Positions 5,170 to 64,000 of a stretch of 64,000 nucleotides of DNA are shown here, one piece after another. The stretch's first letter is position 1; every line of letters starts with the position of its first letter. The notes under the pieces were generated by a model. The model had not been told where the DNA came from. It was given only the letters and a program-made list of their open reading frames with translations, and did no database searches. The stretch covers positions 106,640,001-106,704,000 of the forward strand of contig NC_135882.1 of assembly GCF_964194155.1 (NCBI RefSeq), in the 5' to 3' direction. Source of the DNA: Cetorhinus maximus (lineage: Eukaryota). The position numbers and the translations under genes were made by a program.

Positions 5170-5825
5170 TTTCAAAAGCAAAATGCTGTGAATGATGCAA
5201 ATCTGAAATAAAAACAGAAAATTCTGGAAATATTCAAGCCAAGCAGCATCCATGGAGAGAGAAACCAAGATTGCGTTTCAGGCTGATAAGTTTTTGTTAG
5301 AACCGGAGAAAGTTATAGGTTTTAAGTAAGTTTGGGGACATGGAAAGAGGTGGGGAGAAAGAAAAGTAAGGCCTATGATTGGTTGGAAAGCAGGAGGGAT
5401 TAAATTTCAGTATGATGGTGTGTGCAAGGCAAAAGGAGAGGATAATGGGATAAGTTTTTTAAAAAACTAGACCGGTCTAGAGAAGTGTAAATGGGAAAGA
5501 CTGAATCATTACCATCAGTTGCTGGTTTTTCAATTTTTACCTTTCTTGAAGTGTAAAATACGTGTAACAATGGTTGGCAAAATGTAGCAGTTTGGACGTA
5601 GTACATGGCTGGCCAAAAAAAATGGTGGGCTGAAGTTATGATCTCAAATTGTTAAACTCAGCATTGTGTCCCAAAGCTGTCGAGGGTTTAAACAAAAGAT
5701 GTAGCGCTGTCCCTTGAGCATTGGGATTGCAGTGGAGAATTGAAATGAATGGAGCTGTTGCACGAAGCGGTGGCCTAACCTGCATTTGATCTCCCCAATA
5801 TTGAGGAAACGACATTGTGAGCTGC
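5170..5825 (-). mobile_element. Penelope-like element 3' part (GIY-YIG endonuclease relic plus terminal repeat)
   Basis: SQCRFLNIGEIKCRLGHRFVQQLHS resembles the PLE CxxCxxxYIGETKRxLxxRFxEH motif; LKGQRYIFCL...NAEFNNL resembles the C-terminus; followed by the terminal repeat. Confidence 0.7.
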
Positions 5826-8370: not shown

Positions 8371-8733
8371 GGAAATAGTGGCATAGTGGTTATGTCCACC
8401 AGAGGCCCAGGCTAATGGCCTGAGATACGAGTTAAAATCCCACCACAGCAAGTAATAAACCCGGAATATAAAAGGTAGCCTCAGTAATGGTGACCATGAC
8501 AACTATCATTGATTGTTGTAAAAACCCATCTGGTTCACTAATCTCCTTTTGGAGAAAGAACTCTACCATCCTTAACTGTCTGGCCTACGTGTGATTACAG
8601 ACCCACAGCAGTATGGTTGACTCTTAGCTGACCTCTGCAATGGCCTAGCAAGTCACTCAGTTCAAGGACAATTAAGGATGGGCAACAAATGCTGGCTTTC
8701 CCAGCAATGCCCACATGCCACAAGAATTTTAAA
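8371..8733 (+). mobile_element. tRNA-derived SINE sharing its 3' tail with LINE-A
   Basis: Box A tggcatagtgg, box B-like gagttaaaatcc, body aaacccatctggttcactaat, tail caaggacaattaaggatgggcaacaaatgctggc. Confidence 0.8.
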
Positions 8734-9325
8734 GCACAACAAACACTGTAGGATGCCATGTAGCATCATGAAAGCTACTTGCAAGTGAAACTAGAGCATA
8801 GTGCAATGTCAGTCATTTTGCTTCATTAAGATATCTGGCTTGGTTGTGGCCGCTTTCTTGTCAGTTACAAAATGGTTGCCTTGGCAGTGTTGGGACTGAT
8901 TCCTCTCAATTCATCTACTTGATGAATCCACTTACTTGGTCCTCTTCCTTATTTCTATCAATAATTCCTGATGCTTTTCCAGTCAGCAGCAGGAGTTTAG
9001 AATATGCACAGTGGGCATCAATTTCTCGATTTTACTGTGGATTAAAGAAAAACATAATTTGCCAGCAATAAGTTTATCTCTTCCCAATCTATGATGGGAT
9101 CACAATCTCAGTGGGATTTTTTGTGAGTGCTGCCTCCTTAAGTCAAACCCAGTGTGTTGAGCCTTTGAGCAGGGAGTTCCTACACAACCTGGGTAATTCA
9201 CCTGGTAGATAATGGACACATAATCCCATTGTCATTGTTTCAAGTCCCACATTGACTAATGAAGTTTTACTTAAATATTTTATTCAAAATTCAGGCTATA
9301 TGTAGTCTGTACTTATACTACATGC

Positions 9326-9580
9326 AGGGGAGGTGGTGGTGGTGTAGTGGTATTGTCACTGGACTGGTAATCCAGGGTAATGCTCTGGGGACCCAGGTTC
9401 AAATCCTACCACGGCAGATGATAGAATTTGACTTCAATAAAAGTTTGGAATTAAAAGTCTAATGATGAACATGAAACCACTGTCAACTGTTATAAAAACC
9501 CATCTGGTTCACCTGGTGGTTGACTCTTAACTGCCCTCTTAACAAGGCCAATTAGGGTTACCTAGCCAGCAACACCCACT
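9326..9580 (+). mobile_element. tRNA-derived SINE, same family, internally deleted
   Basis: Box A tggtgtagtgg, box B ggttcaaatcc, aaaacccatctggttcac, partial tail. Confidence 0.8.
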
Positions 9581-10534: not shown

Positions 10535-12025
10535 AATGAATTAGGAGGATTCGGCCATTTGGCCCCTCAAGCCTGCTCCAGTATTTGATAAGATCATAGC
10601 TGATCTGATTGTAACCTCAACTCTACTTTCTTGTGTACCCCCTATATCCTTTGACTTCCTTGTCAATCAAAAATCTGTCTAAGTCAGACTTAAAAATATT
10701 CATGACCCTGTCTCCACTGTCCTCTGGGAAAGAGAATTACACAGAGCAATGACCCTCTCTTTACCTCCATCTTAAATGGGAGACCCCTTTTTAAATTTTG
10801 TCCCTTACTTCGTCTCTCCAAGAAGGAGATCGATCCTCTCACTGAAGAAGCATGACACCATTCAGGACAAAGCAGCCTGCTTGATTGGCACCCCATCAAC
10901 AAACATTCACACTGTCCACCACTGACGCACAGCAGCAGTGTGTACCATCTACAAGATGCACTGCAGGAATTCACCAAGGCTCCTTGGACAACACCTTCCG
11001 AACCCATGACCACTACCATCTAGAAGAACAAGGGCAGCAGACACATGGGAACGCCACCACCTGGAAGTTCCCCTCCAAGCCACTCACCATCCTGACTTGG
11101 AAATATATTGCAATTCCTTCACTGTCGCTGGGTCAGAATCCTGGAACTACCTCCCTAACAGCACAGTGGGTGTACCCACATCACATGGACTGCAGTGGCA
11201 GCTCACCACCACCTTCTCGAGGGCAGTTAGGGATGGGTATTAAATGCTAGCGTAGCCAGCGATGCCCCCACATCCCATAAATGAATTTTAAAAAAGCATC
11301 CACTCAAGCCTCCTTTGGACCTTATATGTTGCAATAACTTGACCTCTCATTCTTCTAGACTGCAATAGATGCAGTTCTGTCCAACATTTCCTCATAAGAT
11401 AACCCCTTCATCCCAGGAATCAGTTGTGTGAACCTTCTGAATTGCTTCTAATGCTATTATATTGTTTCTCAAGTAAGACCAAAACTGTACATGGTACTTC
11501 AGTTGTGGTCTCACCAATGCCCTATACAACTGTAATTAAAGATCCCTACTTTTATATTCCATTTCCCTTGCAATTAACGACACCACTCCATTTGTCTTCC
11601 TAATCACTTGCTGGACCTGCATACTAACTTTTTGTGATTCATTTACCAGGCAGCTAGATCCCTCTGTACCGCCAAGCTTTGCGTTCTTCCTGCCAAAATT
11701 GACCAGTTCACGTTTTTCTACATTATACTCAAACTGCCAATTTTTTGCCCACTCACTTAATCTGTCTAAATCCCCTTGTCATTCACAAATTTAGCAACCA
11801 TACATTTGGTCCCATCATCCAAGTCATTTATATAGATTGTAAATATTTGAAGTCCCAACACTGATTCTAGTGGCACTCCACTAGTTACAGCTTGCCAACC
11901 TGAAAATGACCTGCTTATCCCTACTCTCTGTTTCCTGTTAGCTGACCAATCCCCTATCTATGCTACTGCATTACCCCCCCTACACCATGTGCTCTTGTGT
12001 AGTAACTGTTGATGTGGCACCTTTA
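10535..12025 (-). mobile_element. CR1 RT/3' fragment inserted in the pogo relic
   Basis: CR1 tail at ~10540-10700 and RT-region similarity to 29190-30880. Confidence 0.75.
10843..11295 (+). mobile_element. LINE-A 3' fragment
   Basis: gacaccattcaggacaaagcagcc...gggatgggtattaaatgctag...aatgaattttaaaaaa. Confidence 0.85.
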
Positions 12026-12170: not shown

Positions 12171-12765
12171 CATCAGATTTTCTTGGTCAGGATCAATTTG
12201 GTTGAGAATTCAAATTATCCAATAATTGAATGTAATAAAAGGCCTGGAGTTACCTTGATTGCAGCTTAATCTGGGTGGAATTAAGTGAGTAACACAAAAA
12301 CTGGCATAATTTTAAGCACAAGTGAGTTGTGCCTGCCACCAATTCACACCAGAGTATCAGTGAACTTTTATGCTGGCTCAAAAATCCCTTCATCCAAAGC
12401 AGTTTCCCACTGTCAAAATTGGCTGTGCCCCCAGCTGGGAATGGTGAGTTTCCGCCAATTGTGCCTGTTCTGGGGAGTGATTGGGTCATCAACTTATACA
12501 CAGATTCTTGGATGTGCAGGCATCCATGTTCATGCGAATCCACAGTATATCACTTTCCCAGCAGTCAATTGAAGCCAATTTAAAAAGCAAGATCAAGAAC
12601 ATCAAATCACTAACTGATCTGCCCTGCTCTCCTACAAATTCATTAGTTTAAAAAGGTTTTGAGTTAATTTACTGCCATTCCGCTCCCTTTTGCTAGAGGA
12701 TGCTCTGTTATAGTCACATTTATTACATTGCTTGATTGTGCTGATTCATGAAAAATTAAAGCCTA

Positions 12766-15030
12766 AGCACTGAGGGTGGCAAGGGTGGAGCATGCACTCT
12801 GGGTGGGGGACTTCAATGTCCATCACCAAGAGTGACTCGGTAGCACCACTACAGACTGAGCTGGCCGAGTCCTAAAGGATAAAGCTGCTAGACTTGGTTT
12901 GCGGCAAGTGGTGAGGGAACCAACAAGAGGGAAAAACATACTTGACCTCATCCTCACCAATCTGCCTGCCACAGATGCATCTTCCCGTGACAGTATGAGG
13001 TGCTGTGGACCATCAGCAGCAGCAGAACCATACTCGAACACAATCTGTAACCTCATGGCCTGGCAAATCCCCCACTCTACCAATACCATCAAGCCTGGTT
13101 CAATGAAGAGTGCAGGAGCGCATGTCAGGAGCAGCACCAGGCATACCTAAAAATGAAGTGTCAACCTGGTGAAGCTACAACACAGGATTACTTGCATGCT
13201 AAACAGCATAAGCTCTGCAGTGTGAATGGTGATGGACAATTAAACAATTTACCGCAGGAGGAGGCTCCACAAATATCTCCATCCTCAATGATGGGGGAGC
13301 CCAGCACATCAGTGTAAAAGATAAGGCTGAAGCATTTGCTACAATCTTTAGCCAGAAGTGCCAAGTGGATGATCCAACTCTGCCTCCTCCGGAGGTCCCC
13401 AATGTCACAGATGCCAGTCTTCAGCCAATTCAATTCACTCCACGTGATATCAAGAAACAGCTGAAAGCACTGGATAGTGCAAAGGCTATGGGCCCATAGA
13501 ATATTCCGGCAATAGTAACTGAAGGATTGTGCTCCAGAACTTGTCGTGTCCCTAGCCAAACTGTTCCAGTACAGCTACAACACTGGCATCTACCCGGCTT
13601 TGTGAAAATTGCCCAGGTATGTCCTGTACACAAAAAGCAGGACAAACCCAGCATGGCCAATTATAGGCCCATCGGTCTACTCTTGGTCGTTAGTAAAGTA
13701 TTGGAAGGGGTCATCAACAGTACGGTCAAGTGGCACTTGCTTAGCAATGACCTGCTCGCTGATGCCCAGTTTGGGTTCTGCCAGGGCCACTCAGCTCCTG
13801 ACCTCATTACAGCCTTGGTTCAAGCATAGACAAAAGAGCTGAACTCCAGAGGTGAAGTGAGAGTGACTTGCCCTTGACACCAAGGCCGCATTTGTCCGAG
13901 TGTGGCATCAAGGAGCCCTAACAAAACTGGAGTCAATGGGAATTGGGGAAAACTCCACTGGTTGGAGTAATACCTATCACAAAGGAAGATGGTTGTGGTT
14001 GTTGGAGGTCAGTCATCTTGGCTCCAGGACATCACTGCAGGAGTTCGTCAGGTTAGTGTCCTCGGCCCAACCATCTTCAGCTGCTTCATCAGTGACCTTC
14101 CATCATAAGGTCAGAAGTGGGGATGTTCGCTGATGATTGTGCAATGTTCAGCACCATTCACGACTCTTCAGATGCTGAAGCAGTCCATGTCCAGATGCAG
14201 CAAGACCTGGACAATATCCATGCTTGGGCTGATAAGTGGCAAATAACATTTGTGTGACACAAGTGCCAAGCAATGACTATCTCCAACAAGAGAGAACCTA
14301 ACCATCACCCCTTGATGTTCAATGGCATTACCACCACTGGATCCCCCCCAGGATCAACATCCTGGGAGTTACCATTGTCCAGAAACTGAACTGGACTAGC
14401 CATATAAATACTGTGGCAACAAGAGCAGGTCAGAGACTAGAAATCCTGCTACGAGTAACTTACCTCCTGACTCCCCAAAGCCTGTCCACCATCTACAAGG
14501 CACAAGTCAGGAGTGTGATGGAATACTCCCCACTTGCCTGGATGAGTGCAGCTCCCACAATACTCAAGAAGCTTGACACCATCCAGGACAAAGCAACCCG
14601 CTTGATTGGCACCACATCCACAAACATTCACTCCCTGCACCACTGACGCACAGGAGCAGCAGTGTGTACCATCTACAAATGCACTTCAGGAATTCACCAA
14701 GGCTCCTTAGACAGCACCTTCCAAACCTATGACCACTACTATCTAGAAGGACAAGGGCAGCAGACAGGTGGGAACACCACCACCTGGAAGTTCCCCTCCA
14801 AGTCACTCACCACTCTGACTTGGAAATATATCATCGTTCCTTCACTGTTGCTGGGTCAAAATCCTGGAACTCCCTCCCTATAACAGAACTGTGGGTGTAC
14901 TTACACCACATGGACTGCAGTGGTTCAAGAAGGCAGCTTACCACCACCTTCTCAAGGGCAACTAGGGATGGGCAATAAATGCTGGCCCAGCCAGAGAAGC
15001 CCACATCCCGTGAATGAATTAAGAAAAAAA
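12766..15030 (+). mobile_element. LINE-A (CR1-group) copy, 5'-truncated with internal deletions
   Basis: GDFNVHH, PTRGKNILDLILTN, NYRPIGLL, QFGFCQGHSAPDL, FADDC, 3' tail with A-rich end. Confidence 0.9.
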
Positions 15031-20299: not shown

Positions 20300-20400
20300 T
20301 GAGTTCTAAAGAAGAGTAGTATGGACTCAAAGTTAACCCTTTTCTCTCTCCACAGATGCTGCCAGACCTGCTGAGTTTTTCCAGCACTTTTGTTTTTAAT
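20300..20400 (+). mobile_element. Penelope-like terminal repeat fragment
   Basis: gagttctaaagaagagtagtatggactcaaagttaac...cacagatgctgccagacctgctgag. Confidence 0.65.
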
Positions 20401-20919: not shown

Positions 20920-21730
20920 CTAAACTATTTGTTTAGCCCCTTGAACCTGTTCCACCATTCCGTGAGACCATGGCTGATCTGTGACCTAACTCAATATACC
21001 TTAGTTTCTTTCCATATCCCTTAATACTTTAGGTGGGCAAAAATCTTAGCAATCTCAGATTTAGAAGAAACAATTGTTGACATTTGCTGAAGAGTTCCAA
21101 ACTTCTTCTACGTTTGTGTGAAAGATCTAGCTCTATTTTTTAGGCTATGTCTCCTAGTCCTGAACTCCCCAACCAGCATAAATAATTTCTCTCTAACTGC
21201 CTCATCAGTTCTTCTTAATATCTTGTAAACTTGGTTCAAATCACCCTTAACTTCTGAATTCCAGAGAATACAACCCTAGTTTGTGTAATCTTTCCTTGTA
21301 ATTTAACCCTTTGAGCTAATGGATAACTCTACTCAATTTATGCTACACTCCCTTCCAAGCCAATATATGCTTCTTAAGGCCTAGTGCCCAGAATGACTCC
21401 CACTAGTCCAGGTGTAATCTAATTAGTGTTATGTATAGTTATCATAACTTCTACCCTGTGTGTCCTAGATATAAAGTCCAGCATTCCATTAAGCCAAAGA
21501 TTAAAGCAAAATACTGTGGATGCTGGAAATCTGAAATAAAAACAGAAAATGCTGGAAAAACTCAGCAGGTCTGACAGCATCTATGGAGAGAGAAACAGCT
21601 TTTTTCAGAGCTAAAGAAAAGCCATTAAGCCATCTTGATTATGTTTTGTACCTATCCATGGCATTTAAATGATCTTTGTGCATGGACCCAGCAGTCTGTT
21701 TGGGCCTCCACTGTTTGTAGCATTTCACCA
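20920..21730 (-). mobile_element. CR1 3' fragment containing a Penelope repeat at ~21500-21615
   Basis: CR1 tail and RT-region similarity; inserted aaagcaaaatactgtggatgctggaaatctg... Confidence 0.7.
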
Positions 21731-26763: not shown

Positions 26764-27536
26764 AAATTCCCTAGGTTCTGAAAAGGTCCCAGCAGATTGG
26801 AAAACCACAAATGTAATACCTCTATTTAATAAAGGAGGGAGACAGAAAGCAGGAAATTATAGACCACTTAGCCTAACATCTGTCATTGGGAAAATGCTAG
26901 AATCCATTATTAAGTAGTAATAGGGCATTTAGTAAATCATTTCTTCAATCAAGCAGAGTCAACGTGGTTTTATGAAAGGAAAACCGTGTTTGAAGAAATT
27001 CGCTACTTGAAGGTGTAACAAGCAGAGTGGATAAAGGAGAAACAATAAGTGTGTATTTGGATTTCCAAAAGGCCACAAAAAAGTAACAACATAAGAAGAG
27101 CTCATGGCGTTGGGGTATTAGCATAGATAGAGGATTGGCTAACCAACAGGAAAGAGTAGGGATATATGGATCATTTTCGGGTTGGCAAAGTATAACTAGT
27201 GGAATGCCACAAGGATCAGTCCTTAACTATTTACCATCTATATTAATGACTTGTATGAAGGGACTAAGTGTATTATAGTCAAATTTGCTGAGGACAAAGA
27301 TAGGTAGGAAAGCATGTCGTGAGGAGGACAGAGTCTGCAAAGGGATATGCATAGATTAAGTGAGTGGGAAAACATTTGGCACACGGAGTATGGTGTGGGA
27401 AAATGTGAGGTTGTCCACCTTGGCAGGAAGAATAGAAAAGCAGAATCTGATTTAAATGGAGATACTACAGAATGCTGCAGTACAGAGGGATCTGAATCTC
27501 CTTGTACATGAATCACAATAAGTTAGCAGGCAGGCT

Positions 27537-28332
27537 CTTTTTAATTCATTCACGGAATGTGGGCTTCGCTGGCTGGGCCAGCATTTATTGCCCATACCTA
27601 GTTGCCCTTGAGAAGGCGGTGGTGAGCTGCCTTCTTGAACTGCTGCAATGTGGTGTAGGTACACCCACAGTGCTGTTAGGAAGCGAGTTCCAGGATTTTG
27701 ACCCAGCGACAGTGAAGGAACGACGATATATTTCCAAGTCAGGATGGTGAGGGATTTGGAGGGGAACTTCCAGGTGGTGGTGTTCTCATCTATCTGCTGC
27801 CCTTGTCCTTCTAGGTGGTAGTGGTCATGAGTTTGGAAGGCGCTGTCGAAGAAGCCTTGGTGAATTCCTTCAGTGCATCTTGTAGATGGTACACACTGCT
27901 GCTACTGTGCATTGGTGGTGGAGGGAGTGAATGCTTGTGGATGTGGTACCAATCAAACGGACTGCTTTGTCCTGGACGGTGTCCAGCTTCTTGAGTGTTG
28001 TGGGAGCTGCACTCATCCAGGCAAGTGGGGAGTATTCCATCACACTCCTGACTTGTGCCTTGTAGATGGTGGACAAGGTTTGGGGAATCAGGAGGTGAGT
28101 CACACGACCCCTAGCCTCAGACCTGTTCTTGTAGCCACAGGATTTTTCTATTGCTAGTCCAGTTCAGCTTCTGGTCAGTGGTAACCCCTGGGATGTTGAT
28201 AGTGAGGGATTCAGTGATGGTAATGCCATTGAATATCAAGGGGCAATGGTTGGGTTCTCTCTTGTCGGAGATGGTCATTGCCTGACACTTGTGTGGCGTG
28301 AATGTTACTTGCCACTTGTTATGGATATTGTT
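27537..28332 (-). mobile_element. LINE-A 3' fragment nested in CR1
   Basis: LSTIYKAQVRSVMEYSPLAWMSAAPTTLKKLD; tail at 27537. Confidence 0.9.
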
Positions 28333-29180
28333 CAGCAAGTAATTAGGAAGGCAACTGGAAAGTTGGGCTTTATTGCAAAGTGGGGTGGAGTATAAAAGTA
28401 GGGAAGTCTTGCATCAACTGTACAGTTTGGTGCAACCAAACCAAGAGTACTGCATACAGTTTTCAACTCCTTATTTAAGGAAGGAATTACTTGCATTGGA
28501 GAAAATTCAGAGAAGTTTCACTAGGTTGATTCCAGGGATGAACAGGTTGTGTTATGAGGAAAGATTAATCAATTCGGGACTATACTCATTGGAGTTTAGA
28601 AGAATGAGAAGCCACCTTATTGAAAATAAGATTCTGAGGGGGCTTGACAGGGTAGATGCTGAAGGGATGTTTCCCTACTGGGGGAATCTAGAACGAGGGG
28701 GCGCAGTTTCAAAATAAGAGGTCTCCCATTTAAGCCAAGCGATGAGGAGGAATTTCTTCTCTCAGGGGGTGGTTAATCTTTGGAATTTTCTACCCCAGAG
28801 ATCTGTAGAGGCTGGATCATTGAATATATTCAAGGCTGAGTTAGATGGATTTTTGATCTACAAGGGAGTCATAGGTTTTCGGGGTCAGGCAGGAAAGTGG
28901 AGTTGAAGCCACAATCTGATTACACATTATCTTATTGCATGATGAGCAGGTTTGAGGGGCCAAATCGCCTACTCCTGTTCCTATTTCTTGCGCTCTTATG
29001 TAGAAAGTCCTCTGATCTATCATTTTTTGGTCCAAGGTGAATGACCTCAAACTTGCCTTCAACATTTTGCTTTTCATGTAGTGAAATGTCCCAAGGAGCT
29101 TCACAGGAGTTATAAAAGAAAATTTGACACTGAGCCACATAGAATTAGGGAAGCTTAATCAAAGAGGTTGGCTTTAAGGA

Positions 29181-31218: not shown

Positions 31219-31352
31219 GAAGGGTCATTGGACTCGAAACGTCAACTCTTTTCTTCTCCACTGATGCTGCCAGACCTGCTGAGTTTTTCCAGGTAATTCT
31301 GTTTTTGTTTTTGTTTTGGATTTCCAGCATCCGCAGTAGTTTTTTGTTTTTA
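31219..31352 (+). mobile_element. Penelope-like terminal repeat with hammerhead-like 3' half
   Basis: gaagggtcattggactcgaaacgtcaactct...gatgctgccagacctgctgag. Confidence 0.7.
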
Positions 31353-31482
31353 TCTAGAGAGGGGAGAATGTAGGAGGCCAGCATTGGAATAGTCAAGTCT
31401 AGAGGTAACAAAGGCATGAATGAGGGTTTCAGCAGCAGATGAGCTGAGGCAGGGATGAAGTCATGCATTCTTCCAGATGTGG

Positions 31483-31730: not shown

Positions 31731-32888
31731 CCATAGGTATCTGAGTGATGAGATGGATATGTGTTTGGAAGCTCATTTTGGAATCAAATATGACATCATG
31801 GTTGTGAATAAACTAGTTTAGCCTCAGACAGTTGCCAGGGAGGGGGTAGTAGCAGTTGCTAAGCAGCGAAGTTTGTGGCAGGGACCAAAGTCAATGGCTT
31901 TGGTCTTCCCGATATTTAGTTGAAAGAAATTTTTGTTCATCCGGTACGGGATGTTGGACAAGCAGTCTTGACAATTTAGAGACAGCAAGAGTCAAGAGAG
32001 GGAGTGATGAGTTAGAGCTGGGTGTTGTCAACGTACATGAGGAAACTGACAGTATTTTTGGATGATGTCATCCAGAGTAACATGTAGATGAGAAATAGGA
32101 GGGGGCCAAGGATAGATCCTTGAGGGACACCAGAGGTAATGGCGCAGGAGTAGGAAGAGCATTGCAGGTGATTCTTTGGCTATTTTTAGAGAGAGAAAAA
32201 TGGAATCTCCAATGCCTTTATTGAATCAAATAGCCACAGTTTTGCCCATTCATTTCATTTATTAATAACTAATTTTATGATTCCGTCTACACTGCTTATA
32301 ATACCACCTATCTTTGTGTCAACAGCAAATAGACATATTGCTCTCTATTTCATCATCTAAATCATAATAAATACGACAAATAGTTGAAGCCCCAACTCAT
32401 CCTTGTGGGATACCACTAGACACATGCTGTCAATTGAAGTAACTGCCCATTACATTTACCTCTATCTCCTGTCACTCAGCCAGTCACTCAGCCAATCTCC
32501 TAATCTGCTCAATAATTAGTCTACAATTCCATGAGCTTCAAATTTTGCTAACAAAATCTCATAATAAACTATCAAATCCCTTCTGGAAGTCCATATGAAT
32601 AACATCCGTTCATACACTCTATCCACTACTATAGTAATTTCATGTACACTTTACAAATCCATGCTGGCTTTCTTTGATCAGCTGAAAAATTTCAAGTTCA
32701 CTCTGTCCCTAATTATAGAGTTTAGTAATTTCTTGACTACGTGGGCTAACTGGTCTATAATTCCACAGTTTCGCTCTCACCTTTCTTAAATACCAGAGTG
32801 ACATGCATAATTTTCCAATCTGATGCAACAGCTCCTGAGCCAGAGAACTTTCAAAGTTTATAGTTAGGGTATCTACAATATTTTCATC

Positions 32889-35800
32889 TTTTTTATTCAT
32901 TCTACAGGATGTGGGCATCGCTGGCCAGGCTAGCATTTATTGCCCATCCCTAACTGCCCTGGAAAAGATGGTAGTGAGCTACCTTCTTGAACAACTGCAG
33001 TCCCTGTGGTGTAGGTACACCCATGGTGCTTTTAGGGAGGGAGTTCTAGGACTTTGACCTAGTGACAGAGAAGGAATGGCGATATATTTCCAAGTTAGGA
33101 TGGTGAGTGGCTTGGATGCGAACTTCCAGGTGGTGGTGTTCCCATGTGTCTGCTGCCCTTGTCCTTCGAGATAGTAGTGGTTGTGGGTTTGGAAGGTACT
33201 GCTTCGGGAGCCTTGGTGAGTTCCTGCAGTGCATCTTATAGATGCTACACACTGCTGCCACTGTGTGTCGGTGGCGGGGGGAGTGAATGTTTATGGATGG
33301 GGTGCCAATCAAGCAGGCTGCTTTGTCCTGGATGGTGTCAAGTTGGAACTGCACTTATCCAGGCAAGCGGAGGGTATTCCATCACGCTCCCGACTTGTGC
33401 CTTGTAGATGGCGGACAGGCTTTGGGGAGTCAGAAGGTGAGTTATTTGCTGCAGGATTCCTAGCCTCTGACCTGCTTTTGCAGCCACAGTATTTATATGG
33501 CTAGTCCAGTTCAGTTTCTGGTCAATGGTAACCTCCAGGATGTTGATAGTGGGGGGATTCAGCAATGGCAATACCACTGAATATCAGGAGGCGATGGGAA
33601 GATTCTCTCTTGTTGGCGATGCTCATTGACTGACACTTGTGTGGCATGAATGTTACTTGCCACTTGTCAGCCCAACCCTGGATATTGTCCAGGTCTTGCT
33701 GCATTTGGACATGGACTGTTTCAGTACCTGAGGAGTTGTAAATGGTGCTGAACATTGTCCAACCATCAGCAAACATCCCCAGCTCTAACTTTATGATGGA
33801 AGGTCATTGATGAAGCAGCTGAAGCTGGTTGAGTCAAGGACATAACCCTGGGGATCTCCTGCGGTGGTGTCCTGGGACTGAGATGATTGACCTCCAACAT
33901 CCGCAACCATCTTCCTTTGCGCTAGGTATGACTCCAACCAGCAGAGAATTTTTCCCCTGTTTCCCATTGATTCCAGTTTTGCTAGGGCTCCTTGATGCCA
34001 CACTCTGTCAAATACTGCCTTGAAGTCAAGGGCAAGTCACTCTCACCTCACCTCTGCAGTTCAGCTCTTTTGTCCATGCTTGAACCAGGGTTGTAATGAG
34101 GCCAGGAGCTGAGTGGCCCTGGCGGAACCCAGACTGGGCGTCAGCGAGCAGGTTATTGCTAAGCAAGTGCCGCTTAATAACACTGTTGATGACCCCTTCC
34201 ATCACTTTACTGATGATGGAGAGTGGACTGATGGGGTGGTAATTGGCTGGGTTGGATTAGTCCTGCTTTTTGTGTACAGGACTTACCTGGGCAATTTTCC
34301 ACATAGCTGGGTAGATGCTTGTGTTGTGGCTGTACTGGAACAGCTTGGCTCGGGGCACGGCAAGTTCTGGAGCACAAGTCTTCAGTACCATTGCCAGAAT
34401 ACTGGCAGGGCCCACAGCCTTTGCAGTATCCAGTGCCTTCAGCTGTTTCTTGATATCACGTGAATGAATCGCATTGCCTGAAGACATCTGTGATGCTGGG
34501 GACCTCTGGAGGAGGCCGAGATGGGTCATTCACTCGACACTCCTGGCTGAAGATTGTTGTGAATGCTTCAGCCTTATCTTTTACACTGATCTGCTGGGCT
34601 CCCCCATCATTGAGGATGGGGATATTTGTGAGTTGTTAAATTGTCCACCGCCATTCACGACTGGATGTGGCAGGACTGCAGAGCTTAGATCTGATTATTG
34701 GTTGTGGAATCGCTTAGCTCTGTCTATCACTTGCTGCTTATACTGTTCGGCACACAAGTAGTTCTGTGTTGTATTTCACCAGGTTGACACCTCATTTTTA
34801 GGTGCCTGGTGCTGCTCCTGGCGTGCCCTCCTGCACTCTTGGCGGTAATGGTAGAGTGGGGGATATGCCGGGCCATGAGGTTACAGATTGTGATTGAGTA
34901 CAATTCTACTGATGGTCCACAGCGCCTCGTGGTTGCCCAATCTAGAGTTGCTAGATCTGTTCGAAATCTACCCCGCTTAGCAGGGTGATAGTACTACATA
35001 ACACGATGGAGGGTATCCTCAGTGTGAAGGTGGGACTTCGTCTCCACGACAACTGTGCGGTGGTCTCTCCTAACGATACTGTCATGGACAGATGCATCTT
35101 TTTTTTAATTTGTTTATTGGGATGTGGACATCACTGGCTAGGCCAACATTTATTGCCCATCCCTAATTGCCCTTGTTCAGAGGTCAGTTAAGAGTCAACC
35201 ACATTGCTGTGGGTCTGGAGTCACATGTAGGCCAGATAAGGACAGCAGATTTCCTTCCCTAAAGAACATTAATGAACCAGATGGGTTTTTACAACAATCG
35301 ACAATGGTTTCATGGTCATCATCAGACTTTTAATTCCAGATTTTTATTGAATTCAAATTTCACCATCTGCCATGGTGGGATTTGAACCCAGGTCCCCAGA
35401 GCATTACTGTGGGTCTCTGGAATACCAGTCCAGTGACTATGCCACTGCCTTCCCCCATCTGTAGCAGGCACGTTGGTGAGGATGAGGTCAAGTATGTTTT
35501 TCCCTCTTGTTAGTTCACTCACCACCTTCTGCAGGCCTGTCTAGCAGCTATATCCTTTAGGACCCAGCCAGCTTGGTCTATGGTGGGGCTACTGAGCCAC
35601 TCTTCATGTTGGACCCCAGCCAGCGTACATTCTGCACCTTTGCCACCCTCAGAGCTTCCTCCAAGTGTTGTTCAACCTGGAGGAGCATTGATTCATCAGC
35701 TGAGTGAGGTGGGGGATGGGGGGGGAGGAGAGGCAGTGAGTGGTAATCAGCGAGAGGTTTCCTTGCCCATGTTTGGATGGAGTCAATGTTGAGGACTCCC

Positions 35801-36304
35801 AGGGCAACTCCCTCCTGACTGTATACCACTGTGCTGCCTCTACTAGGTCTGTCCTGCCTGTGGGAGAGGACATAAGGATGGTGATGTTGGTGTCTGGGAC
35901 ATTATCTGTAAGGTATGATTTTGTGAGTATGACTATGTCAGGTTGTTGCTTGACTAGCCTGTGGGACAGTTCTCCCAATTTTGGCACAAGCCCCCAGATG
36001 TTAGTAAGGAGGACTTTGCAGAGTTTGGCATTGTCATTTCAGGTGCCTAGGTCAATGCTGGGTAGTCCATCCAGTTTCATTCCTTTGTAGCCGTTTGATA
36101 CAACTGAGTGGCTTGCTAGGGCATTTAATAGTCAACCACATGTCGAGTCACATGTAGGCCAGACCAGGTGAGGATGGCATATTTCCTCCATTAGACTTTT
36201 AATTCCAGATTTTTTTTTTTTTTATTATTGAATTCAAATTCCACCATCTGCTGTGGTCTCCAGGGCATTACCAGTCCAGTGACAATACCACGACACCACT
36301 GCCT
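32889..36304 (-). mobile_element. Near full-length LINE-A with a tRNA-SINE-like 5' end and no ORF1
   Basis: SINE head and body at 36102-36304, endonuclease start KVLLTNIWGLVPKLGELSHRLVKQQPDIVILT, RT, tail at 32889. Confidence 0.9.
35100..35455 (-). mobile_element. tRNA-SINE inserted in LINE-A, TSD catct
   Basis: catct at 35095-35099 and 35456-35460; box B ggttcaaatcc; LINE-A-type tail. Confidence 0.9.
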
Positions 36305-37500
36305 ACTTCTTTTAAAATCTTGGATTAAAAACCATGTGGACTTGATAATTTGTCACTGGTGCCATTATTTTCTAAATTACTGTTGTTTTGCTTATGGTAA
36401 TTTTGGTTCCAGATTCACTATTAGTTTCCTTGGGATGTTCATCATGCTATCCTTTTCATCCACTATAAATATGACACAAAGCATGTCCACTATTTCCTTA
36501 CTTTTATTGACAATATCATGATCAGTTTTCAAGAGACCCACATAGATTTTTTCCCCTAATATAATTGTAAAAATTTGAGTTCATAGGATAAATTAGTTGC
36601 TGTTATTTGTCTAATAAATGACTTCATTGGACTTATTAATGGCTGGATTTTGTTGCAGCTAGCATTGCTCACCATGATTAAAGTTTTAAAATCGCTCAGC
36701 AATTGCTGGTGACTGCATGTAGGCACAGAAATCCAGAAGTTGCTGTCCAAATTGCCCTGCTCCTCCAGAAACAGGTATCACACCAGTGAAATACATGGAG
36801 TGATATGAAGTTGCTGTATGTGTGAGATATATACCTACTAAACTCATTAAAAGTTAGGTCTTGTTTATCTGATTGTAAGTACCCTTTTAATAGTGTGATA
36901 AATCTTAAATACTGTTAAACTTTCTAGCACTGAAAATTAACTTTAACAAATGTGGCATCTTATTCCTTCAGATTTTTATTTAAACTTTTTTAAATCTCCA
37001 AAAATTATTTTTCACTTTTGTCTATTTTATCTTTCACTCCTAAAACAATCTGTCCTTCCCTCTTGATTTTGCTTTCTGTACCTGATTGACATTGAATTAG
37101 ATATTCCAATTGTTACTTCCTGGATTAGACTGCATTGCTCATTAACATCTTCAATCTGATTAGGTAAGGAATTTCTTACTCTGTTCACACAGATCCCAGA
37201 TCACCAGTAGAGGGTGCTGCATCTTTTCACACTGATTTTATAGTAAGTTCCAGTGCAAAATCTTTTGGCAATTGTAATAAATGGCTGACACTGTTTGTTC
37301 ACTGCTGAAAATAATATCCAGTCCACTGTATATGTAGCCCATTGGGACATTTGTGAGAAATGTAACAGAACTTTAAACTACATAGTGCTTTTTTATAATG
37401 TCAAAAAATATTTTTTTCAAAATATGATTGTAGTTTTCATTGTACATGCAATTTGAGATTTTGAACTCAAAATACTTTTGTTAGGCATGTAAGTGTATAT

Positions 37501-38924: not shown

Positions 38925-41900
38925 TAGGGGGAGCCAGCATGGATTTCTTATGGGAATATCATGTTTAACTAACTTGCTGGAGTTTTTGGAAGAGGTAGCA
39001 GAGAGGGTTGTTGAGGGTAATGCTTTTGATGCGATGTACATGGAGTTCCAAAAGGTATTCAATACAGTGCCACACAAAAGACTTGTGAGAAAAGTTATAG
39101 CTCATGGAATAAAAGGGGACAGCAGCATTGTGGATACAAAATTGGCTGAGTAATAGGAAACAGCGAGTAATGGTTAATAGGTATTTTTCGGGCTGGAGAT
39201 AGGTTTGCAGTAGCATTCTCTAGGGATCGGTATTGGGGCTCTTGCTTTTCCTGTTGTATTTTAATGGTCTTGGTGCGCAGGGGATAATTTCAAAGTTTGC
39301 AGATGATACAAAACCTGGAAACATTGTAAACTGTGAGGAGGACACTACAGAACTTCAAAAGGACATAGACAAGTTGGTGGGGTACGCAGACAGGTGGCAG
39401 ATGAAGTTCAATGTGGAGAAACGTGAGGTCATTCACTTTGGTGGGAAGAACATGGAGACATAATATAAAATAAGCAGGACAACTCTGAAGGGTGTGCAGG
39501 AGCAGAGGGACCTGGGTGTATATGTGCATAAGTCATTAAAGGTGGCAGGACAGATGGAGAGAGCAGTTTATAAAGTATACAGTGCCCTAGGCATTCTTAC
39601 AGATAATGTCCCAGACACCACCATCACCATTCCTGGGTATGTTCTGTCCCACCAGCAGCACAGACCCAACAGAGGTGGCGGCACAGTGGTATACAGTCGG
39701 GAGGGAGTTGCACTGGGAGTCCTCAACATCGACTCCAGACCCCATGAAGTCTCAAAGCATCAGGTCAAACATGAGCAAGGAAACCTCCTGCTGATTACCA
39801 CGTACCGCCCTCCCTCAGCTGATAAATCAGTATTCCTCCATGTTGAACACCACTTGGAGGAAGCACTGAGGGTGGCAAGGGTGCAGAATGTACCCTGGGT
39901 GGAGGACTTCAATGTCCACCACCAAGAGTGGCTCGGTAGCACCACTGCTGACCGAGCTGGCCGAGTCCTAAAGGACATAGCTGCTAGACTGGGTCTGCGG
40001 CAAGTGGTGAGGGAACCAACAAGAGGGAAAAACATACTTGACCTCATCCTCACCAACCTGTCTGCCGCAGATGCATCTGTCCATGACAGGATCGGTAGGA
40101 GTGACAACCGCACAGTTGTTGTGGAGATGAGGTCCCGGCTTCACATTGAGGATACCCTCCATCGTGTTGTGTGGCACTGCCACCATGCTAAATGGGATAG
40201 ATTTTGAACAGATCTAGCAACTCAAGACTAGGCATCCATGAGGCGCTGTGGGCCACCAGCAGAAGCAGAACTGCACTCAAACATAATCTGTAACCCCATG
40301 GTCCGGCATATCCCCCACTCTACCATTACCATCAAGCCAGGGGATCAACCCTGGTTCAATGAAGAGTGCAGGAGGGCATGTCAGGAGCAGCACCAGGCAT
40401 ACCTAAAAATGAGGCGTCAACCTGCTGAAACTATAACACAGGACTACTTGCATGCCAAACAGCACAAGCAGCAAGTGATAGACAGGACCATGAGATCCCA
40501 CAACCAACAGATCAGATCTAAGCTCTGCAGTATTGCCACATCCTGTCGTGAATGGTGGTGGACAATTAAACAACTCACTGGAGGGGGAGGCTCCACAAAT
40601 ATCATCATCCTCAATGATGGAGGAGCCCAGCACATCATTGCAAAAGATACAGCTGAAGAATTTGCAACAATCTTCAGCCAGAAGTGCCGAGTGGATGATC
40701 CAACTCGGCCTCCTTCCGAGGACCCCAGATTCACAGATGCCAGTCTTCAGCCAATTCGATTCACTCCATGTGATATCAAGAAACGGCCGAAGGCACTTAG
40801 TACTGCGAAGGCTATGGGCCATGACAATATTCCGTCAATAGTACTGAAGACTTGTGCTCCAGAACTTGCTGCACCCCTAGTCAAGCTGTTCCAGTACAGC
40901 TACAACACTGGCATCTACCCGGCTATGTGGAAAATTGCCCAGCTATGTCCGGTACACAAAAAGCAGGACAAATCTAACCCGGCCAATTACCGCCCCATCA
41001 GTCTACTCTCCATCATGAGTAAAGTAATGGAAGGAGTCATCAACAGTGCTATCGAGTGGCACTTGCTTAGCAATAACCTGCTCACTGACACCCAGTCTGG
41101 GAACCGCCAGGGCCACTCAGCTCCTGATCTCATTACAGCCTTGATTCAAACATGGACAAAAGAGCTGAACTCCCGAGGTGAGGTGAGAGTGACTGCCCTT
41201 GACATCAAGGCACCATTTCACCGAGTGTGGCATCAAGGAGCCCTAACAAAACTGGAGTCAATGGGAATCAGGGGGAAAACTCTCCGCTGGTTGGAGTCAT
41301 ACCGAGCACAAAGGAAGATGGTAGTGCTTGCTGGAGGTCAGTCTTCTCAGCTCCAGGACATCACTGCTGGAGTTCCTCAGGGTAGTGTCCTAGGCCCAAC
41401 CATCTTCAGCTGCTTCATCAATGACCTTCCTTCCATCATAAGGTCAGAAGTGGGGATGTTCGCTGATGATTGCACACTGTTCAGCACCATTTGCGACTCC
41501 TCAGATACTGAGCAGTCTATGTCCAAATGCACCAAGACCTGAACAATATCCAGGCTTGGGCTGACAAGTGGCAAGTAACATTCGAACCACACGTGTCAGG
41601 TAATGACCATCTTCAACAAGAGCGAATCCAACCATCGTCCTTTGATGTTCAATTGCATTGCCATCACTGAGTTCCCCACTATCAACATCCTAGGGGTTGC
41701 CATTGACCAGAAACTGAACTGGACTAGCCATATAAATACTGTGGCTACAAGAACAGGTCAGAAGCTAGGAATAGTGCGACGAGTAACCCACCATCTGACT
41801 CCCCAAAGCCTGTCCACCATCTACAAGGCACATATCAGGAGTGTGATGGAATACTTCCCACTTGCCTGGATGAGTGCAGCTCCCACAACACTCAAGAAGC

Positions 41901-42915
41901 TTGACACCATCCAGGACAAAGCAGCCCGCTTGATTGGCACCACAGCCACAAACATTCACTCCCTCCACCACCGATGCACAGTAGCAGCAGTGTGTACCAT
42001 CTACAAGATGCACTTCAGGAATTCACCAAGGCTCCTATGACAACACCTTCCAAACCCATGACCACTACCATCTAGAAGGACAAGGGCAGCACTGACCATC
42101 CTGACTTGGAAATATATTGCCACCCCTTCATTGTTGCTGGGTCAAAATCCTGGAACTCCTTTCCTAACTGCACTGTGGGTGTACTCACACCACATGGACT
42201 GAGCGATTCAGGAAGACAATTCACCGTCTTCTCAAGGGCAGCTAGGGATGCGCAACAGATGCTGGCCCAGCCAGTGAAGCCTATGTCTCATGAATGAATA
42301 AAAAAAAGAGCACAAGAGCAAGGAGGTTATGCTGAACTTGTATAAGACACTAGTTAGACCTCAGCTGGAGTATTGTGTACAGTTCTGGGCACCACACTTT
42401 CAGAAGGATGTGAACGCATTGCAGAGAGTGCAGAAGAAATCCAAAAATGGTTCCAGGGATGAGAAACTTCAGTTGTGAAGATAGATTGGAGATGTTGAGA
42501 CTGTTCTCCTTGGAGAGGAGAAGGGTAAGAGGAGATTTGATAGAGGTGTTCAAAAATCATGAGGGGACTGGACAGAGTAGATAGGGAGAAGCTGTTCCTG
42601 ATCATAAAAGGATCAAGAATGAGAGGGCATTGATTTAAAGTGATTTGCAAAAGAAACAAATGTGACGTGAGAAAGATCTTTTTCACACAGCGAGTGGCTC
42701 TGCTCTGGAATGCACTGCCTGGAAGTGCGGTGGAGGCAGATTCAATCAAGGCATTCAAGAGGGCATTTGATGATTATTTAAATAGACACAATGTGCGGGG
42801 TTACGGGGAAAAGGCAGGAAAATGGCAATGAGTCATAATGCTTATTCTGAAAGCCGGTGCAGACACGATGGGTCAAATGGCCTCTTTCTGTACTGTAACA
42901 ATTCTGTGATTCTGA
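38925..42915 (+). mobile_element. CR1 RT/3' fragment split by LINE-A
   Basis: SQHGFLMGISCLTNLLEF, SKFADDTK, resumes at 42308, tail aattctgtgattct. Confidence 0.85.
39595..42307 (+). mobile_element. LINE-A, slightly 5'-truncated, few disabling mutations
   Basis: ORFs 39494-40207, 40238-41542 and 41603-42040 give EN (YRPP, DFN, LDLILT) and RT (GVPQGSVLGP, FADD); poly-A at ~42300. Confidence 0.93.
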
Positions 42916-43145: not shown

Positions 43146-43584
43146 CGTAAGATGCAAGTCCTGAAAACACTGGTACTCACAGTTATATTCATAATAATCA
43201 AACTGCTTGAGGTTTTAAAATGATTGAATTTATCTAAATGAATATTGCTCAATATTCCTTTTTCGACCTTAGCACAGAGTTAATTGAGCCTGGATAAAAT
43301 GCTTTTCTGCATTTTGTAATGTTGTTGTTCAGTTCACTATTGTGGCTGTCATTTTTAAAGATATGTTTAACAAGAGTAAGCAGTAGGACTAAGCCCACAG
43401 TGTTAGTGTCACAATGTGTTCAGTGTTGATTGAAGTTTTAAATATAGAAGAGCATCATGGTTATGATCGTGTTGTCAAAATACCAAGAGTATAATGATAT
43501 AATCAATGACACAAAGACACTCCACTGACATCCATCTAAACTGTTTCAATATGGTGTCTTAATCTCCAAAAAAGCACAACTTTA

Positions 43585-43870
43585 TTTTTTTAATTAATTT
43601 TTGGAATGTGGGCATTTCTGGTTGGGCTGGCATTCATTATCCATCCCTAAATACCCTTGAGAAGATGGTGCTGAGTCACCTTCTTGAACAGCTGCAGTTC
43701 CGCTGGTAAAGGTGCTCCCACAATGCTGTTAGGTAGGGAGTTTAAGGATTTTGACCTAGCAACAATGAAAGGACAATAATATATGTTCAAGTCAGGATGG
43801 TACAGATGATGTGAAAATGTTTCCATGCATCTGTTGCCCTCGTCCTTCTAGATAGTGGAGGTCATGGGTT
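43585..43870 (-). mobile_element. LINE-A 3' tail fragment
   Basis: ggaatgtgggcatt...ccatccctaaatacccttgagaagatggtg. Confidence 0.8.
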
Positions 43871-61960: not shown

Positions 61961-62392
61961 ATTTTGGAAATATAAACTTTGGCAGAGCTATAAACATTAG
62001 TTTCAAAATAAAACTGAGCTATGAAAAGAAACAACTTGCTGAGCGAAAAAAAGAGAATATTAGGCTGAGAACATGCGTGTCCGACTTACTCTCAGTCTCA
62101 GAGGTGCTCACTCACTCATCCTCACCCACTGTGAGAGTGGATGATGGTGTGTGGGGGTGGGGGTGAATGAGAACCCTGATACTGAGAGTGAACCAGGCTT
62201 ATGGACACCCTCGCGCTCTCCCTCTCACACACCTCACCCGCGCTCTCGCTCTCACCCTCCCCCACCCCTCACACATTCCCTCTCTCTCACCCTCCCTGAC
62301 TCCCGCCCTCCTCCTCCCCTCCCGCCCGCACCCGCGCCCTCCCCCTCCCCTCCCCTCCCCGAGCACCCTGGCTCTCACTCTCCCCTTCTCTC

Positions 62393-63900
62393 GGCCCCCT
62401 CTCCCCCACCGCCCCCTCCCCGAGCCCCCTCTCCCCCACCCGCCCCCTCCCCGGGCCCCCTCTCCCCCACCCGCCCCCTCCCCGGGCCCCCTCTCCCCCA
62501 CCCGCCCCCTCCCCGGGCCCCCTCTCCCCCACCCGCCCCCTCCCCGGGCCCCCTCTCCCCCACCCGCCCCCTCCCCGGGCCCCCTCTCCCCCACCCGCCC
62601 CCTCCCCGGGCCCCCTCTCCCCCACCCGCCCCCTCCCCGGGCCCCCTCTCCCCCACCCGCCCCCTCCCCGGGCCCCCTCTCCCCCACCCGCCCCCTCCCC
62701 GGGCCCCCTCTCCCCCACCCGCCCCCTCCCCGGGCCCCCTCTCCCCCACCCGCCCCCTCCCCGGGCCCCCTCTCCCCACCCGCCCCCTCCCCGGGCCCCC
62801 TCTCCCCCACCCGCCCCCTCCCCGGGCCCCCTCTCCCCCACCCGCCCCCTCCCCGGGCCCCCTCTCCCCCACCCGCCCCCTCCCCGGGCCCCCTCTCCCC
62901 CACCCGCCCCCTCCCCGGGCCCCCTCTCCCCCACCCGCCCCCTCCCCGGGCCCCCTCTCCCCCACCCGCCCCCTCCCCGGGCCCCCTCTCCCCCACCCGC
63001 CCCCTCCCCGGGCCCCCTCTCCCCCACCCGCCCCCTCCCCGGGCCCCCTCTCCCCCACCCGCCCCCTCCCCGGGCCCCCTCTCCCCCACCCGCCCCCTCC
63101 CCGGGCCCCCTCTCCCCCACCCGCCCCCTCCCCGGGCCCCCCTCTCCCCCACCCGCCCCCTCCCCGGGCCCCCTCTCCCCCACCCGCCCCCTCCCCGGGC
63201 CCCCTCTCCCCCACCCGCCCCCTCCCCGGGCCCCCTCTCCCCCACCCGCCCCCTCCCCGGGCCCCCTCTCCCCCACCCGCCCCCTCCCCGGGCCCCCTCT
63301 CCCCCACCCGCCCCCTCCCCGGGCCCCCTCTCCCCCACCCGCCCCCTCCCCGGGCCCCCTCTCCCCCACCCGCCCCCTCCCCGGGCCCCCTCTCCCCCAC
63401 CCGCCCCCTCCCCGGGCCCCCTCTCCCCCACCCGCCCCCTCCCCGGGCCCCCTCTCCCCCACCCGCCCCCTCCCCGGGCCCCCTCTCCCCCACCCGCCCC
63501 CTCCCCGGGCCCCCTCTCCCCCACCCGCCCCCTCCCCGGGCCCCCTCTCCCCCACCCGCCCCCTCCCCGGGCCCCCTCTCCCCCACCCGCCCCCTCCCCG
63601 GGCCCCCTCTCCCCCACCCGCCCCCTCCCCGGGCCCCCTCTCCCCCACCCGCCCCCTCCCCGGGCCCCCTCTCCCCCACCCGCCCCCTCCCCGAGCCCCC
63701 TCTCCCCCACCCCGAGCCCCCTCTCCCCCACCCGCCCCCTCCCCGAGCCCCCTCTCCCCCACCCGCCCCCTCCCCGAGCCCCCTCTCCCCCACCCGCCCC
63801 GAGCCCCCTCTCCCTCACCCGCCCCCGCCCCGAGCCCCCTCTACCTCACCCGCCCCCTCCCCGAGCCCCCTCTCCCTCACCCGCCCCCTCCCCGAGCCCC
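62393..63900. repeat. 31-bp GC-rich minisatellite (gccccctctcccccacccgccccctccccgg)n
   Basis: About 42 near-perfect units to ~63690 with degenerate edges; the 31-aa periodicity of the spurious ORFs fits the unit length. Confidence 0.95.
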
Positions 63901-64000
63901 CTCTCTCTCACCCTCACCCTCCCCTCACACACACTTTTTCTCACTCTCTCCGTGCCCCCCTCACGCACCCACTCTCTCTCCGTGCCCCCCTCACGCACCC

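Follow-up and report, generated by a model that had tools for sequence, protein, structure and literature searches.

A tRNA-type 5' head in elasmobranch Zenon, a CR1-group LINE of Cetorhinus maximus, and its relation to two classes of SINE

A 64,000-nt window of Cetorhinus maximus contig NC_135882.1, to whose positions all coordinates below refer, carries on its minus strand (36303 to 32889) a broken copy of a long interspersed nuclear element (LINE) that opens with a tRNA-derived head and lies inside an older CR1 element. Searches of the 3.99-Gb genome showed that the tRNA-type head is a trait of the whole LINE family, and comparison with published consensuses identifies this family as elasmobranch Zenon, a CR1-group LINE that has already been catalogued and whose head was not found described in the open-access literature searched. 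The first-pass annotation of the window had proposed a CR1-group LINE lacking the first open reading frame (ORF1) and starting with a tRNA-type head, and the full-length copies support that description. The family is a known one, in which the tRNA head and the missing AUG prove to be family-wide; new here is a predicted anticodon-like hairpin with its GCU partner. LINEs are taken to be units of RNA polymerase II (Pol II) and short interspersed elements (SINEs) units of Pol III, with SINE heads regarded as additions to LINE tails.

The head across the genome and in published Zenon consensuses

A query spanning the junction of head and endonuclease returned 5116 candidates, and all 39 of the other matches that were scored spanned both the endonuclease and the body that follows the head. 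Exact matches to a 32-nt junction pattern numbered 2263 genome-wide and none for the control, and the aligned junction matches begin at a sharply defined 5' boundary, after which come boxes A and B. When the endonuclease alone served as query, the head was reached at 16 of 29 other loci, 7 ended within the body and 6 started downstream of the junction, the sorting being our own classification. A further sample, likewise blind to the 5' end, consisted of 40 copies taken by rank among the 123,472 candidates of a reverse-transcriptase (RT) search. In 17 of these RT-picked copies the element continues upstream of the endonuclease, in every case into linker, body or head; automatic chaining brought nine to within 40 nt of the element start, and a tenth was seen in another alignment. 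None of the 17 had a normal 5' untranslated region and ORF1, no full-length copy examined had room for an ORF1, and no alternative 5' end was common to 33 flanks of truncated copies. The junction is common to thousands of copies and to five species consensuses, so it is not unique to this locus, and a one-off adjacent insertion or template switch is refuted, its probability being negligible.

The copy in the window is dead, its identity to the family majority being 78-88%. Its decayed head (36257-36303, minus strand), delimited by alignment to sister copies, retains box A at 36288-36298, seen again where it had first been placed; deletions have removed the anticodon arm's 3' half (18 nt) and, between 36258 and 36257, box B (17 nt), and the alignment thereby bears out the loss of box B already noted for this copy. 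The body, a 5' untranslated region common to two SINE classes, occupies 36102-36256 (minus strand, by alignment), with its end at 36102 likewise recovered; it has lost pieces of 63, 8 and 12 nt and its poly-A is expanded. In all, seven deletions, box B among them, affect the 5' region. The single ORF for an APE endonuclease and RT (EN-RT; 32950-36087, minus strand) is broken by many stops and frameshifts, and the 3' tail shared with the SINEs (32889-32962, minus strand) ends in poly-A, contains the ORF stop and includes a predicted stem-loop (family z -2.35). Host CR1 RT sequence flanks the copy upstream (36304-36404) and downstream (32301-32888), both on the minus strand, the two flanks joining in frame with a target duplication of 0-2 nt. 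Alignment of the joined flanks to other CR1 copies runs across the insertion point in five alignments, in one continuous frame; head and LINE therefore represent a single insertion, as had been suggested from the collinearity of the host. No target-site duplications were obvious by eye in 13 full-length family copies.

The same head, body and junction open the Zenon consensuses of five elasmobranchs, namely great white, whale shark, catshark, stingray and dogfish (CarCar, RhiTyp, ScyCan, HypSab and SquAca), in the first 400 nt of each row of the PMC13343379 supplement, whereas the hagfish and coelacanth Zenon consensuses have no such head in the first 400 nt compared. Sequence motifs matched 3-6 Zenon rows and no other row of that supplement, and comparison by eye of a 190-nt stretch with CarCar_Zenon-1 gave 188 identical positions. 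The family majority, built from 40 of 60 RT-picked copies after 20 short or interrupted ones had been left out, is 3290 nt long (the five published Zenon-1 rows measure 3244-3314 nt) and has the defining features of Zenon: a single 975-codon ORF with APE endonuclease and RT, no ORF1, and a poly-A tail. Pfam Exo_endo_phos_2 and RVT_1 matched on sister copies; the RT shares 35% identity with a CR1 from this genome and 46-49% with four relatives, and a word-based protein search gave one distant match. In 5' end, lack of ORF1, APE and RT domains and poly-A tail, the element itself does not differ from the elasmobranch Zenons as given in the parts of PMC13343379 used here.

According to section 15 of PMC13343379, Zenon elements of all phyla are without ORF1 and have poly-A at the end. 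The head therefore did not replace ORF1, which was already absent before the head arrived, and the earlier proposal that a tRNA promoter had taken its place has to be abandoned. The main text of that paper contains neither 'tRNA' nor 'promoter', and the portion of its text examined mentions no head, AUG loss or SINE partner. No description of a tRNA head, Pol III or AUG loss in Zenon was found in the open-access literature, Repbase, Dfam and SINEBase lying outside that search.

SINEs composed of the two ends of the LINE

Two classes of SINE consist of nothing but the two ends of the LINE. SINE-A, with a long-form head, is represented at 8371-8735 (plus strand); its body is common with the LINE up to 8662 and is followed straight away by the LINE tail, as first described. 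A SINE-B-type copy with an internal deletion lies at 9328-9580 (plus strand), where ARAGORN reports a tRNA-Thr at 9333-9416, and a second SINE-B, with the head, body and tail of the LINE family, is nested within the LINE copy itself at 35101-35455 (minus strand), in the same orientation and with a duplication of about 5 nt (AGATG) at its flanks. This nested element is not in the other LINE copies mapped and represents an insertion into its own parent LINE. The SINE-B junction, with 5478 exact matches, falls 16 nt earlier than that of SINE-A and right before the upstream AUG described below. Among the first 30 of 6865 matches to the end of the body, 18 were SINE-A, 8 LINE and 4 other. The short elements have the features of SINE2, namely a head with boxes A and B, no coding capacity, high copy number and a tail common with the partner LINE, and both SINE junctions are also held in RNA contigs of other organisms.

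In a tree of 75 shared 5' parts (from 103 heads, those with fewer than 220 aligned nt or of unclear class being left out; midpoint root, bootstrap not settled), a 97/99 branch contained all 18 SINE-B rows together with 31 LINE-class rows, and all 14 SINE-A rows fell outside it, with the long-form LINE heads. The tails of SINE-B are like young LINE tails (16 of 25; 33 of 38), and SINE-B is without the 16 nt present in LINEs. Because SINE-B thus matches young LINE tails and lacks sequence that the LINE carries, the comparison identifies it as a product of deletion from the LINE. SINE-A likely arose by LINE deletion too, from a long-form head lineage other than that of the LINE copy in the window and with the direction less sure than for SINE-B; in it the shared tail follows the shared 5' part without any base specific to SINE-A in between. 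The proposal that the SINE at 8371 is a deletion derivative of the LINE is in this way clear for the sister class and likely for the SINE to which it was applied.

In a different history SINE-A is the older element, from which an AUG-bearing Zenon acquired its head and body through template switching, and deletion accounts for SINE-B alone. The tail states of SINE-A speak for it and against derivation of SINE-A from the LINE: they are its own, being absent from all 38 RT-picked LINE tails and found in one of eight of the long-form-type set, so that no parent LINE of SINE-A was found among the LINE tails compared. The bivalve Zenons treated in the consulted part of PMC11481361 partner ordinary tRNA SINEs through the tail only, which is also in its favour. 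However, the absence of any SINE-A base between the shared parts comes free with deletion and would be a coincidence with capture, long-form LINE heads group with SINE-A in the tree, and copies with other breakpoints (L092, L136, L188 and L240) show that deletions recur. We consider an older SINE-A unlikely.

The recurrence of deletion is seen in single short elements joining the LINE ends at breakpoints of their own: L092 (flank), L136, L188, L240, L236 and L247. Some of these elements may represent additional SINE subfamilies. The last part of the body can pair with the beginning of the tail (-15.6 kcal/mol), and this complementarity may guide jumps of the RT. Set against such guidance, the 5'-3' duplex stands out only modestly, since 2.5% of 283 control windows do equally well.

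Lepidopteran Zenon repeatedly gives rise to short internally deleted elements made of its two ends, Persaeus SIDE (PMC6740152, in part). As characterised there, Persaeus shows neither homology to tRNA nor a Pol III promoter, whereas in the shark the head belongs to the LINE itself, and for this reason its deletion product is a full tRNA SINE. Bipartite SINEs derived from RTE and Vingi take their body from a LINE 5' region, and tRNA-like sequence was noted in RTE-1_DAn and elements related to it, a precedent for a tRNA-like piece in a LINE; in that model, however, the tRNA head is added after LINE deletion, the LINE is a Pol II unit, and the CR1-group is not among the donors named in the part of PMC5786205 used here. 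The elasmobranch tRNA SINEs HE1 (V-SINE, with the HER1 LINE) and SacSINE1 have a tail common to a CR1-group LINE, their listed partners being HER1, CR1-like and L2 (PMC3747384 and PMC5499810, each in part). With regard to the conserved central domains of the V-, Deu-, CORE- and Meta-SINE superfamilies, four body motifs of the shark element were absent from two supplement files of PMC4824008. Identity with HE1 or another V-SINE was dropped on the basis of V-SINE features and the Zenon match. We take the body of the shark element to be neither a V nor a Deu domain.

Transcription, reading frame and a predicted hairpin

Several properties of the family suggest that the LINE is likely transcribed by Pol III from its head. 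Boxes A and B, like the precise tRNA-type 5' boundary, have been retained in sharks and rays, and ARAGORN recognises a tRNA-Thr on 2 of 21 sister heads. The sense strand of the majority has no run of four or more T (T4) in 3.27 kb, as against 15 such runs of A, 12 of C and 9 of G, and 3 of 13 full-length copies are also without T4. TTT occurs 4 times in the ORF against 12.8 in synonymous shuffles, none of 2000 being as low, and decayed Zenon segments contain 0.40 T4 per kb (499 segments, one family) as compared with 3.38 in 45 other LINE RT segments of the same genome. On the other side, Rfam does not score the head as a tRNA, non-canonical terminators are not significantly depleted, and the absence of T4 is weak alone (P 0.087 with synonymous shuffles, 0.20 with a first-order Markov model and 0.01 with base shuffles).

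The 975-codon frame of the majority has its first Met at codon 291, past the endonuclease; there is no AUG in frame either ahead of the endonuclease domain or within it. Upstream of the endonuclease this frame encodes an Arg-rich peptide; a non-shark relative (983 residues, 41% identical), alignable from codon 17, has an Arg-rich start too. Just before the junction, 62 of 71 copies conserve an AUG that is in frame, has a strong context and is itself preceded by eight AUGs. It is followed by one codon, GCC, and then by UAG in 88 of the first 100 of the 2263 junction matches, and a second in-frame stop, UAA, is present in 35 of the same 100 (hand counts), the UAA-bearing copies being the least diverged (0.955-0.96 versus about 0.93). 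All indels common to at least four copies are multiples of 3 and lie within 20 nt after a conserved GCU; most of them are one 3-nt deletion and hence not independent. From the two in-frame stops after the upstream AUG and the frame-keeping indels past GCU, it is most likely that EN-RT translation starts in frame a few codons past the second stop, with no AUG at that place.

Three other ways of opening the frame were considered and rejected. Read-through from the upstream AUG would have to pass two stops in 35 of 100 copies. An in-frame AUG variant in the linker is sporadic, with 3 genome matches versus 2242 for the common form. A subfamily with open AUG-GCC-GAG (540 matches) occurs in SINEs and in LINEs with or without the second stop (30 examined), and the change from UAG to GAG is recurrent and does not mark an open-start lineage. 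As a separate observation, this T-to-G change, at a position in the loop of the hairpin described next, is found in SINEs and LINEs alike, far above the neutral transversion rate (L219-L248). Two whale shark gene models, P0003 and P0004, are built from pieces of the 5' region of the element and use upstream AUGs; they are likely annotation artefacts.

A predicted hairpin, UGGC-CUAGCAA-GCCA, with a stem lengthened by CUGA/UCAG, holds the stop UAG in its loop, which has the shape of a tRNA anticodon loop. Six of its seven loop bases are those of the head's own anticodon arm, and the stem differs from that arm by one pair, A-U changed to C-G. The loop is the complement of a GCUA situated 12 nt beyond the extended stem, with GCU in the EN-RT frame and downstream of both stops. 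Four such hairpins are present in the element, all within the first 300 nt, and a partner sequence exists for this one only; hairpin and partner together were obtained in none of 2000 dinucleotide shuffles of the region. In the window copy the predicted hairpin survives as a remnant at 36109-36123 (minus strand; loop CUAGCAA at 36119-36113), its 5' arm hit by the 12-nt deletion, and GCUA, the predicted pseudoknot codon with its neighbour, lies at 36088-36091 (minus strand). Read by eye, the five published species consensuses all have GCUA unchanged, with a linker that varies on both sides, and four of the five keep the frame from GCU; in whale shark a 1-nt deletion upstream breaks the frame from AUG and leaves that from GCU intact. 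It is thus possible, and no more than tentatively suggested, that pairing of the anticodon-like hairpin with the in-frame GCU sets the EN-RT frame in the manner of pseudoknot I (PKI) of the dicistrovirus intergenic region (IGR) internal ribosome entry site (IRES).

Several results count against such a role. The pattern of hairpin and pseudoknot was defined after looking at the sequence, the dogfish consensus is by eye 1 nt out of frame from GCU, and the body folds no better than shuffles (z +0.5 to -0.8). No compensatory change was found in the hairpin and pseudoknot, across six predicted helices in 109 copies, dead copies being a poor test of covariation. The likeness to PKI of the IGR IRES, as set out in part in PMC4132737, consists of a predicted anticodon-like loop, a codon before a non-AUG start and a short AU-rich linker, whereas the shark element has only 4-5 predicted pairs and no covariation. 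Folding without pseudoknots predicts three local hairpins upstream, and no ribosome-binding domain of PKII and PKIII was recognised. As a separate result, a search of viral contigs for the hairpin motif gave no match. An IGR-type IRES in non-LTR elements was raised as an unproven possibility in a 2013 review, where, in the part consulted, it was said that it would force revision of the ORF2 concept (PMC3894237).

Taken together, the family may follow a cycle in which TFIIIC and Pol III would start at the tRNA-derived head and avoidance of terminators would let Pol III read 3.3 kb. The uncapped RNA would then be translated from a non-AUG codon just past the last in-frame stop, the frame being set most plausibly by the anticodon-like hairpin pairing with the in-frame GCU. 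Template jumps of the RT between the body and the complementary stretch of the tail would remove the coding middle and leave a ready-made Pol III SINE. For the core of this proposal, Pol III transcription from the head combined with non-AUG initiation of the EN-RT ORF, we would put the chances slightly above even. The full version, a LINE wholly dependent on Pol III with a terminator-free uncapped RNA, a duplicated anticodon arm as dicistrovirus-type frame setter by which ribosomes would begin the RT with neither AUG nor initiator tRNA, and repeated one-deletion SINEs, is improbable as a whole. If true, Pol III can serve a protein-coding retrotransposon, in a successful family kept across sharks and rays; there would be a one-step route from LINE to SINE and an origin of a SINE body outside RTE and Vingi; and the missing AUG makes the initiation of LINE RT frames directly testable.

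A competing account, rather doubtful to us, treats the head as a passenger or a Pol II promoter element and the RNA as a capped Pol II transcript, from the LINE's own promoter or by read-through from the host, with reinitiation at a non-AUG codon after the AUG-GCC-UAG upstream ORF (uORF). L1 ORF2 can start by reinitiation at a non-AUG codon. Termination-reinitiation has been discussed for LINE ORF2 (PMC3894237, in part), and this account draws support from the conserved, in-frame upstream AUG in strong context with a stop two codons later, as well as from the lack of significance of T4 absence against codon-preserving shuffles. It is opposed by the retention of boxes A and B and of the exact 5' boundary in sharks and rays, by the strong depletion of TTT, and by SINE-B, which has reached thousands of copies with the same head and without the upstream AUG; moreover, the eight AUGs ahead of the uORF make a poor leader for scanning.

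Finally, translation could start at a conserved ATG (36078-36080, minus strand) and shift into the EN-RT frame. The first-pass annotation had read this ATG as in frame with the endonuclease apart from one TGA, which is correct for this copy and not for the family: the distance from the ATG to the endonuclease NIW codon is 92 nt in 46 of 73 copies and 78 nt here, owing to a 14-nt deletion in this copy, between 36022 and 36021, and across the family the position is in frame in 8 of 73 copies and out of frame in 65, opening a short overlapping ORF. Its use as a direct start codon thus goes back to an artefact of the deletion. The ATG is nevertheless present in 64 of 73 copies and in each of the five published species, at about the Met position of non-shark relatives (31 codons upstream of the NxxG motif; 21-50 in the relatives), a correspondence that weighs against the proposed start past the second stop and in favour of a programmed -1 frameshift. 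We hold such a frameshift to be very unlikely, given that no canonical slippery site was seen, that a frame-keeping 3-nt indel lies upstream of the ATG, that of three shared non-CpG variants lying between the ATG and the endonuclease, two are silent in the endonuclease frame and none in the ATG frame, and that the ATG frame ends at a polymorphic stop (32 of 81).

Other repeats of the window

Five 5'-truncated copies of the same Zenon family occur elsewhere in the window, at 39596-42307, 12765-15028 and 10840-11298 on the plus strand and at 27535-28335 and 43578-43870 on the minus strand; the copy at 39596 likewise lies within a CR1. Among the genomic loci collected, near-identical pairs on different contigs (L061/L077 and L086/L087) may reflect segmental duplication or haplotigs, and duplicate rows (L001, L031, L038, L075, L077 and L100) were dropped. 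The window further contains six copies of a 70-140 bp repeat with T-rich stretches, which we presume to resemble Penelope-type ends (429-531, 2690-2820, 5173-5265, 20302-20398, 21498-21598 and 31219-31355), and a C-rich 31-bp minisatellite at 62339-63924 comprising 51.7 copies with 95% matches.

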